Positions 20,401-23,400 of a stretch of 64,000 bases of DNA are shown one piece after another. The DNA is from an uncultured Clostridia bacterium. Its GTDB lineage: Bacteria; Bacillota; Clostridia; Christensenellales; CAG-138. Made by a program: the position numbers. Each line of letters opens with the position of its first letter. Within the stretch, counting starts at the first letter, position 1. The stretch spans positions 65,524 through 129,523 of the forward strand of contig CALVLD010000001.1 of assembly GCA_944336475.1 (NCBI GenBank), read 5' to 3'.

Positions 20401-23400
20401 GAACTTTTTCATTATTATATCCCATATTCGGTCTATGTTCAACCGGCTGCAGCATGTTGTCAACATTGTTACGAGGTTTGACACAATTCGGTCGCTGCGA
20501 TTGATTTGTCACAATTTGTTTTGTATTTGACATCAAATATACATTGTTTCAGCATTTTATTTCCATGTTTTCGGGTTATAATACCCGTAAACCAGTATCG
20601 GGCGCAAATGCTCGAAAATATGAAAGGGTGTTTTGAATGGAGAAATCAAAGATTAAAATGCCTACCGGCGCAATAGTCGCCTGCATCATCGTGGTGCTTT
20701 TCATGGTTGCCGCAGTTTTCGGTATCGGTCTGCTGCTATATAACAATCTGTCCGAAAATGAGGCTTCAGTGTCCGATCCTACAGAAACTCCGCTCGTCAC
20801 ATCGCAGCCAACCGCCGTTGTTCAGTCGACACCGGATATGTTCGCATATACCGACAATCAGGCCTCCACAAACGCCGTGACCGATGTGATTGCACGCTGC
20901 AAGGCGGCAGTGGTGAGCATCGATGTTGCGGTCGAGCATAATCAGGATACCGTTGATTACGGAAGCGGCTCCGGCGTAATAGTTACTTCCGATGGCTATA
21001 TCGTTACCTGCAATCATGTTGTTGAAGGCGGCGATGTGATAAGCGTATATCTTGACGACGGCACAATGTACGAGGCGACCCTCATCGGTGCGGACAGTGT
21101 TACCGATATCGCGGTGGTCAAGATAGACGCCAAGGATCTGCCGTTTGCCGAAATCGGCAGCTCTTCCTCCCTTGTCGTGGGCACCGAGGTCTATGCCATA
21201 GGCAACGCACTCGGCGTGCTTGCGAATACGGTTACCGACGGCATCGTGAGCGGTCTTGATCGAGAGATATCGGTAGAGGGTCAGGGCATGACCCTGCTGC
21301 AAACAAGCGCCGCAGTTAACAGCGGCAATTCCGGCGGAGGTCTTTTCACCGCCGACGGTGCGCTCATCGGCATAGTCAATGCAAAAAGCTCGGGCAGCTC
21401 CATAGAGGGGCTCGGATTTGCCGTCCCCATCGATATTGCAATGCCAGTTGTAAACGACCTTGTTACATATGGATTTGTCAAGGGCAGACCGTTCCTCGGA
21501 GTTTCGACACAGGATGTTTCCTATGGCGTTGGCTTCTTCTTCACCGACACCTATCCCCAGGTGGTGGAGGTTTTTGAAGGAGGCTCTGCCGATGTAGCGG
21601 GTATCCTGCCAAACGATATTATAACCGCCATCGACGGCATTGCAGTTTCAAGCGGTTCCGAACTTCGTACGCTGATCTGCACCTATGATGTCGGAGACAC
21701 CGTTACCGTGACGATAATGAGAGGCACCGAAACCCTCTACATCACCGTTACACTGCTCGAACGCACAGAGTAGGCATCAAGCTGCGCTTTGACTGCAACA
21801 ACGCCCTCCTTTCAGTATTGAATTGTCAAAGCGTTCCAAATACCCCTATAAAGTCGTGAAGTCCCCTCTAATTCTTTGCGCGAAAAAGGAACGGCTCAGC
21901 TTGACCGTCCTTTTTTCGTGCTAATCTGTTGTAATGTAGGCAAACAGCGCTTCAGCCGTCGGCATTATAAGGGCATCGGGATACTCATATCCTGCGGTAT
22001 GCAGCGGCGGAGCATCCTTGCCTGCGCCTATGCCGAAGAACACGCCGTTGATATTGGAAAGGTATTCGCCGAAATCCTCCGACCAACGGAACGGAGTTTC
22101 CGGGTATTCAATTTTTATACCGTTATTTGCGCAAGCGGATATAAGCCTTTCAACACAGCGGTCACAGTTTACGGTTGCCGGGAACATATCACAGACTTCC
22201 ACGCTGAAATCGAGTTTATGTTTTTTTGCTATTGCCTCTGTTATCTCGGTAACGCCGGAGACAAGTTTTTTCAAAGCGTTGTCGGTAGCTGCACGAAGCG
22301 TCAGCCATAGCTCGGCTGCCGATGCGGACATACCAAAAGCCTTATCGCCGGAATGGATTCCTGCGATAGTGATCATTCCACATTCCAAGAGCTCACCGCC
22401 GTTTGCCCCTGCGCACCCCTTAAGTTTGGAGACCACATCAACAAGCGCATACGACGGGTTTAGTCCGTCCTCGGGATATGCGGCATGGGCAGGTTTTCCA
22501 GATAGCTTCAATGTAAGCCCGCACGAGGCGCATGCAAACGTCCCTCTGCGAATCATAACCGTACCCAATTCCTCTTGCGGTATGTTGTGACAGCCGATTA
22601 TTTCTTCGATCCTTTCGATTTCAAAAAGTCGACAACACTCCCTTGCGCCTGCGCCTATCTCCTCGGCGTGCTGGAAAAGCAGCACAACATCTTTGCCTAC
22701 GCTCGCTCCCTCAAGCATCAGGGCAAGTGCAAGCAATGCCGCCGAGTGCCCGTCATGTCCGCACAGATGCTCCGCACCGCCCTCCGTGGGGACAGCATCA
22801 AAGTCTGCCCTCGCAGCAACGGTATGCCGCGCATCGCATTCCCGATGCACGGCATAAAACCACGCACCCATATCGTGGAGCTCCATGGATGTGTGCCGCT
22901 CTATAAACTCCATCAAAAACCGTTTGGTTTTTTCTTCACAACAGGAAAGCTCCGCAAGGCTGTTGAGTCTATGCCTGGCATCAGTAAGCAGATCAAGCTG
23001 TTCTCGTCGGATCAGCATCAAAGCTCCCTTGTTCGCAGATAGTCGGCAAGCTCCTCCGCCTCGCTGCCGCCGCCCTCAAGCTGCCGAGCAAGGAGTTTGC
23101 CGTCAAACGAGACGCCATTCAGCCTTGACTCTATCTCGGAAGCTATTGCCGTGTTCAGCGAATCAGTGTATACCTTACAGTCCTTCACGCATCCGTTCTT
23201 CAATCGGAAAAGCAGCTGTATCTCGCCGAATGACAGCCGTTCATCAATCTGATAGTCAAATTCGGGAGATCTGCCGAACAGCCATTCCCATGAATTGTGC
23301 TTTTTATAAAGCTCATCGATGACCGCTTTGGCGCCATCATCGATCACAAATCCTTCACAATCGCCGTATTCTGCGGCAAACGATTCGATTACCGCATCAC

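Follow-up and report, generated by a model that had tools for sequence, protein, structure and literature searches.

In Bacillus subtilis, the CssRS two-component system is described as autoregulated and as controlling htrA and htrB, and the CssR boxes of that organism read TTTTCACAATT-TCCCA at htrA and TTTTCATAATT-TCACA at cssR (PMC6057675 S3 Fig). MtrA of the actinobacterial MtrAB system likewise binds its own promoter, at direct repeats of the form GTCACAgcg or GTnAcC-n5-GTnAcn. Autoregulation is reported to be absent from the wal operons; beside the wal locus an HtrA-like gene is common in Bacilli, with examples in B. subtilis, B. anthracis, Listeria and Leuconostoc, and Clostridioides difficile WalK is without a PAS domain. 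In the Cpx system of Escherichia coli (cpxP divergent from cpxRA, and degP), an OmpR-family regulator binds the divergent region beside its own operon and activates DegP, a homologue of HtrA. Here we analyze a locus of related design in an uncultured Clostridia bacterium of the CAG-138 lineage, on a stretch of 64,000 nucleotides (positions 65,524 to 129,523 of the forward strand of contig CALVLD010000001.1, GenBank assembly GCA_944336475.1), referred to below as the window. In it an operon for an OmpR-family response regulator (RR), a histidine kinase and a radical SAM protein is transcribed divergently from an htrA gene, and the region between them carries an array of conserved boxes that are probably sites for the adjacent regulator.

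The 250-bp divergent region contains four boxes in the same orientation, each with a TGNCA core and together giving the consensus tTGNCAnaATTt, with cores at 20458, 20479, 20507 and 20528; they form two pairs, each exactly 21 bp apart, with one pair for each divergent promoter. Box 1 (GTTGTCAACATTGT, 20456 to 20469, core TGTCA at 20458-20462) is centred at about -52 of the predicted start of the RR operon and box 2 (TTTGACACAATTCG, 20477 to 20490, core 20479-20483), 21 bp away, lies at about -73. Box 3 (TTTGTCACAATTTG, 20505 to 20518, core 20507-20511) lies at about -80 of the predicted htrA start and box 4 (TTTGACATCAAATA, 20526 to 20539, core 20528-20532), 21 bp from box 3, at about -59; all four are read on the plus strand. 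The original prediction had taken the region for an array of regulatory repeats, comprising a perfect palindrome (ATGTTGTCAACAT, 20454-20466), three 12-mers (TTTGACACAATT at 20477, TTTGTCACAATT at 20505 and TTTGACATCAAA at 20526) and a 14-mer (TCACAATTTGTTTT) found at 20509 and again at 51936, 54 and 56 nt before a TATAAT, and on re-reading all of these positions were correct. The palindrome is box 1, and box 3 overlaps the 14-mer (20509-20522), while box 4 sits within a perfect 7-2-7 palindrome (TATTTGACATCAAATA, 20524-20539), centred on the third 12-mer, that had been overlooked.

Within the window, the arrangement TGNCA-N16-TGNCA occurs five times where 1.6 are expected, and two of the five are in the divergent region. 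A search of the kind recommended with the original prediction, for the 12-mer consensus, showed no enrichment within the window at up to two mismatches (7 found against 9.7 expected). A matrix for a single box held too little information for a scan of the window, its top extra match (24037) being the spacer of an mscS promoter; an Rfam search of the divergent region and of the second locus at 51936 gave no match, and a literature search for TTTTCACA was uninformative.

We therefore turn to the comparison of orthologous regions, which covered nine loci (L011, L015, L095 and L099 to L104), ten with the window. Relatives of the kinase comprised one at 60% identity and many at 44-51%. A scan of a genome collection with the kinase returned only relatives at most 33% identical, of no use for footprinting, and a metagenome scan with a kinase alignment used patterns that were too generic, and L015 alone proved orthologous; contigs of the same species add no information because their intergenic region is identical to that of the window. 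Identity to the window across the nine loci is 79-92% for the RR, 44-60% for the kinase and 49-62% for HtrA. The gene order, with HtrA divergent from RR-kinase-(second RR-kinase)-radical SAM-SpoIIE, is kept in all nine, and htrA is thus divergent from the RR in all ten loci.

In the intergenic cores of the ten loci (from the RR -35 to the htrA -10), Gibbs sampling returned TTGNCACAAWTTG with an information content of 10.2, against 7.85 ± 0.27 in shuffles. When a matrix was built from the nine other loci, leaving the window out, it placed window position 20506, in box 3, first (18.3 bits) and 20478, in box 2, second (15.8 bits) among 128,000 positions, and across 1.1 Mb of unrelated loci the same matrix never reached 16 bits. 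Over the 1209 nt of the ten intergenic cores, TGNCA was counted 29 times, compared with 7.2 ± 2.5 in shuffles, and its commonest spacing is exactly 21 bp (7 instances). Its position relative to the promoters is also retained: measured from the RR promoter it stands at -51/-52 in every one of the ten loci and at -72/-73 in five, and measured from the htrA -10 at -59/-60 in six and at -80/-81 in three. The last of these, the partner position of box 3, is retained in L011 and L015. L011 also has TTTGACACAATTC of box 2 in identical form, and its upstream box TTGACATTATTGTT matches TTGTCAACATTGTT of the window with the spacing unchanged. Exact k-mer counts across the orthologs mainly gave -10, -35 and ribosome-binding elements.

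The flanks of the boxes are asymmetric, as the consensus indicates, and all boxes lie on the plus strand. Given that the palindromic flanks of the window boxes are not conserved in the orthologs, the unit is an oriented box and not an inverted repeat. In L100 to L104 half-sites occur at 0, 11, 21 and sometimes 30-31 bp, and the 11-bp-period pattern TGNCA-N6-NGNCA is enriched across the ten loci (z -7.5); a layout of half-sites with an 11-bp period is that of head-to-tail dimers of OmpR/PhoB-family regulators. With sequence, orientation and promoter distance kept in nine orthologous loci, footprinting bears out the original view of the repeats as an array of regulatory sites.

The two promoters are themselves conserved, though not equally. 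The RR-kinase-radical SAM operon is preceded by a sigma-70-type promoter, TTGAAC-17-TATAAT (20414 to 20442, minus strand; 10 of 12 in a promoter scan), and this element, which reads ATTATA-N18-TTCAA(C/G) on the plus strand, is present in 10 of 10 loci. The htrA TATAAT (20577 to 20582, plus strand) is also found in all ten, but in the window genome its -35 is degenerate: there is no acceptable hexamer at 16-18 nt, the best being TTTTAT/ATTTTA at 2 of 6, and for that reason no plus-strand promoter was called there by the promoter scan. Six of the nine other loci (L095, L099 to L102 and L104) carry GGCATTGC(A/C)A, read 16 nt before the TATAAT, where the window has gcATTTTA; the 8-mer GGCATTGC was found in 6 of 10 loci by k-mer count, L103 has ATTGCC, and L011 has a TGn-extended -10 in place of a usable -35. 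The poor -35 at htrA had been read as the signature of an activator-dependent promoter. That the -35 is poor is correct, and its reading holds up for the window and L011, but not for the six orthologs with a reasonable -35, and activator dependence of htrA is accordingly plausible for the window genome and not a property of the clade. A short G+C-rich hairpin about 10 nt past the predicted htrA start (20590-20615 in the window) is possible in most htrA leaders (window, L011, L095 and L099 to L102; GACGGG...CCCGTC in L011 is an example); its folding z-scores are mostly weak (-0.6 to -2.8), and it may be a 5' stabiliser or nothing.

The presumed binder is the product of the first gene of the operon (19684 to 20385, minus strand), an OmpR/PhoB-family RR with Pfam matches to Response_reg (5.9e-30) and Trans_reg_C (2.6e-27). 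All ten regulators have the same recognition helix, DTRAVDTQIKRIRQKL, and therefore one DNA specificity is expected across the ten loci. The presumed target is a membrane-anchored serine protease of the HtrA/DegP type (20637 to 21773, plus strand; Pfam Trypsin_2 and PDZ, with an N-terminal transmembrane (TM) segment). That the genes encode an OmpR-type two-component system beside an HtrA protease was as guessed in the original prediction, and Pfam confirmed it, the kinase being of the HAMP-PAS type.

An adjacent winged-helix RR, direct repeats with a helical periodicity of about 10-11 bp or its multiples, and conservation at fixed promoter distances are what an OmpR/PhoB site array presents, and all three are found here. 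On this sequence evidence we consider it fairly probable that the boxes are sites for the adjacent OmpR-family regulator, which would thereby control both its own operon and htrA. In the scheme we propose, the membrane kinase would respond to an extracellular signal, probably stress on the envelope or on secretion; the regulator, once phosphorylated, would occupy the four boxes; and the bound regulator would raise expression of its own operon (RR-kinase-radical SAM) and of the HtrA protease gene with its poor -35, activation being presumed here over repression.

Several points weigh against this proposal. Another conserved factor could use the boxes, and part of the enrichment of TGACA could be promoter-like sequence, since TTGACA is also the sigma-70 -35 consensus. 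In loci of the window type the strong boxes are 21 bp apart and not 10-11 bp, the intermediate half-sites being weak. Because all boxes point toward htrA, they are reversed relative to the RR promoter. Activator dependence is not general, given the decent htrA -35 of six orthologs, and the start sites of both the RR operon and htrA are placed from -10 hexamers only.

The locus would work like CssRS or MtrAB, but it cannot be filed under CssRS, MtrAB or WalRK. The likeness to CssRS lies in an OmpR-family regulator with probable control of its own operon and of a membrane-anchored HtrA-type protease, and in part of the box sequence. Both CssR boxes, at htrA and at cssR, share TCA(C/T)AATT with the boxes here, the B. 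subtilis htrA box has TCACAATTT in common with the window, and the left 11-mer of the CssR box beats chance (z -3.0); in the window, L101, L102 and L103 it has at most one mismatch. On the other hand, the full 16-nt CssR box, TTTTCAYWWTT(-)TCMCA, fits poorly in the ten loci (z -1.4 to -2.1), and htrA here is divergent from the regulator operon, which includes a radical SAM gene. CssS is shorter than the kinase here (about 630 aa) and is not known to have a PAS domain, and the cytoplasmic PAS domain in the kinase here argues against orthology to CssS.

MtrA provides the closest solved structure to the RR (2gwr, 197 bits), and GTCACA-like hexamers repeated directly at spacers of 5-6 nt beat chance (z -5.1, the value for GTCACA-N5-GTCACA, and z -4.6), though at 1-4 mismatches per locus, the best example being GTCATAattcgGTCACA in L103. 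However, the RR falls under the MtrA equivalog cutoff of NCBIfam (246.1 against 300), no lpqB or other lipoprotein gene is in the operon, MtrAB is actinobacterial whereas the host here belongs to Clostridia, and the strong boxes of the window are spaced at 21 bp instead of 11 bp.

WalRK supplies the best NCBIfam matches, and the kinase has the same architecture (TM-outside domain-TM-HAMP-PAS-HisKA-HATPase), which is not specific because PhoR and ResE also have it. Both proteins nevertheless score far under the equivalog cutoffs (250.8 against 340 for the RR to YycF; 265.3 against 725 for the kinase to WalK). The WalR pattern TGTWAH-N5-TGTWAH is absent, its best matches carrying 2.80 mismatches compared with 2.91 ± 0.19 in shuffles, and there is no walH, walI or walJ; instead all loci have a radical SAM gene after the kinase, with a second RR-kinase pair inserted in two. 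The original comparison with CssRS-htrB or WalRK-htrC was apt for CssRS and its htrA and htrB targets, the htrA box sharing TCACAATTT with the window; for WalRK the canonical consensus is missing. The likeness to Cpx is one of layout; the CpxR pattern GTAAA-N5-GTAAA is not present, the two organisms are unrelated, and here it is the protease gene itself that lies divergent. Among the ten loci, none of the consensus sequences of WalR, B. subtilis PhoP, CiaR and CpxR exceeded the fit seen in shuffles.

The original prediction had also tied the array to a second locus through the 14-mer at 51936. That locus, TGTTCACAATTTG with the 14-mer, is fused to a TTGTTT-17-TATAAT promoter (51933 to 51971, plus strand) upstream of the gene for a secreted DUF7507/DUF11 protein (52052-53680), and is a weak candidate for a co-regulated site. 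The TATAAT nearer to the 14-mer (51966-51971), 17 nt after a TTGTTT inside it, had been overlooked. Its orthologs in L105 and L106 were compared. L105, whose protein is 53% identical and whose gene order is the same, retains both TTAACAAATTGTTTTCAG and CTAATATAATCA, and the promoter of the second locus is therefore real. Two -10 elements in tandem, CTAATATAATCA and GGGTATAATATA, precede the gene in both loci at a spacing of about 40 nt (51966-51971 and 52006-52011 in the window; 2876-2881 and 2916-2921 in L105), and their conservation suggests two promoters.

Whether this locus belongs to the regulon of the RR/htrA boxes we regard as doubtful, although there is something to be said for it. An exact 14-mer is shared with the divergent region, the locus is the third-best window match of the ortholog-only matrix (12.0 bits), and a secreted surface protein and a lipoprotein are encoded downstream. 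In L105 the element TT(C/A)ACAA(T/A)TTGTTTTCAG is conserved along with the promoter, and a TGTCA lies at about -52 from the upstream promoter, while L106, on the same contig as L104, has TGTCAAAATATTT at about -67 from its promoter. Yet a 14-mer common to two intergenic regions arises in 7% of dinucleotide shuffles (P ~0.07) and repeated exact 14-mers number 45 pairs in the window, which make its recurrence marginal alone, and L011, the closest ortholog, does not conserve the 14-mer. A score of 12 bits is expected about 2.8 times per window (128 kb of strand). The copy itself lacks the core TG, reading GTTCA at a place where TG, or at least G, stands in every conserved box, there is no TGNCA pair at the locus, the conservation in L105 is explicable by the overlapped -35, and the other common 9-mer, GTCAACATT, is not significant (P 0.34). 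The link through the 14-mer thus comes out close to chance.

A different factor of the clade, for example a global stress or sporulation regulator, might have conserved sites in such a region, given that conservation alone does not identify the binder. The TGNCA core is palindromic and two of the window boxes are in perfect palindromes, which would suit a symmetric dimer, and sporulation genes (SpoIIE and a SpoVT-like gene) flank the locus. The palindromic flanks, however, are not conserved, and the flanks are asymmetric when averaged; at every locus the boxes go with the regulator gene; and the nearest characterised relatives of the RR have motifs that resemble the one here. The Spo0A box is TGNCGAA and the CtsR box GGTCAAA, and against these the core here has an invariant A in place of the G of the Spo0A box and a variable N in place of the T of the CtsR box. 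We therefore think it unlikely that another factor is the binder. Spo0A, CtsR, Rex, CRP/FNR, CodY and sigma-54 were compared by eye with their consensus sequences and set aside for mismatches in the core or wrong spacing.

It is very unlikely that the repeats are promoter debris, that is, -35-like TTGACA hexamers with AT-rich spacers left by overlapping or former sigma-70 promoters and without a dedicated regulator: although TTGACA is the -35 consensus, plus-strand TTGTCAAC elsewhere in the window is the -35 of minus-strand promoters (5783, 40320 and 54403) and the 14-mer of the second locus contains the -35 TTGTTT of its conserved TTGTTT-17-TATAAT promoter, no acceptable -10 was seen 16-18 nt from the boxes examined (by eye, in the window and orthologs) or found by the window scan, many boxes read TGTCA or TGCCA, off the -35 consensus, and neither the downstream aATT flank nor the fixed -52/-73 and -59/-80 positions would be expected. 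As plain -35 hexamers of minus-strand promoters, the intergenic copies of TTGTCAAC are uninformative about a regulon. The sequence TTGTCAACA, at up to one mismatch, occurs 39 times in the window where 13.5 ± 3.9 are expected, mostly within genes; this excess is probably codon or peptide bias together with -35 hexamers and not a regulatory signal, and TTGTCAACA was dropped as evidence for a regulon, its copies being mostly coding and the other intergenic ones minus-strand -35 hexamers.

The remaining genes of the operon follow the RR on the minus strand. The histidine kinase (17811 to 19721) has two TM segments, an outside domain of about 155 aa, and HAMP, PAS, HisKA and HATPase domains; because its database copy (P0001) is 628 aa, its true start is probably 8 codons downstream. 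The radical SAM protein (16921 to 17814; 297 aa) is translationally coupled to the kinase, with a start that overlaps the kinase stop, and matches no NCBIfam family and no PDB sequence. Its gene is in the operon of every orthologous locus (window, L011, L095 and L097 to L104), and it is unusual for a two-component operon to include a radical SAM enzyme as a constant member. The second RR-kinase pair, a paralogous one, separates the radical SAM gene from the first kinase in L011 (10077-12624) and L095 (6029-8567); its RR is 52-54% identical to the first and has a very similar recognition helix, TVDTHIKRIRAKL. Upstream of this pair in L011 and L095 there is one weak box only, TTGTAACAATTC in L011.

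Elsewhere in the window, a perfect TTGACA-17-TATAAT promoter on the minus strand (5770-5800) precedes a 154-aa gene (5288-5752) and is overlapped by an inverted repeat with 10-bp arms, GACTTGTTGA-tttg-TCAACAAGTC, that looks like the operator of an unrelated repressor. The bacterial large signal recognition particle RNA (Rfam RF01854, 197 bits) is encoded at 14811-15078 on the plus strand, within an apparent intergenic gap of 477 nt, and the gene for small ribosomal protein S21 (54540-54715, plus strand) lies in a gap called intergenic by a length-based open reading frame filter and is annotated in the syntenic L106.

The gain from these findings is incremental, since a stress regulator that controls HtrA together with its own operon is well established. 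A wider formulation would make the locus one instance of a clade-wide module for envelope or secretion stress in uncultured spore-forming Clostridia, built of parts that are otherwise known separately, in which a WalK-like HAMP-PAS sensor is combined with a CssR/MtrA-like output acting at TCACAATT-type boxes, with probable autoregulation and control of htrA, an always co-transcribed radical SAM enzyme, and the surface protein of the second locus as the first further member of the regulon; taken whole, this is improbable. The shared motif suggests that TCACAATT-type boxes before htrA may be common to distant Bacillota. Should the radical SAM enzyme act in signalling or in target modification, two-component systems would gain in it a new kind of accessory component. 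The locus provides a concrete and testable candidate motif, together with a promoter layout, for a two-component system that is uncharacterised and is conserved with htrA across a group of Clostridia from gut and rumen that are known from metagenomes alone, and the motif could allow prediction of the regulon in complete genomes of the clade.

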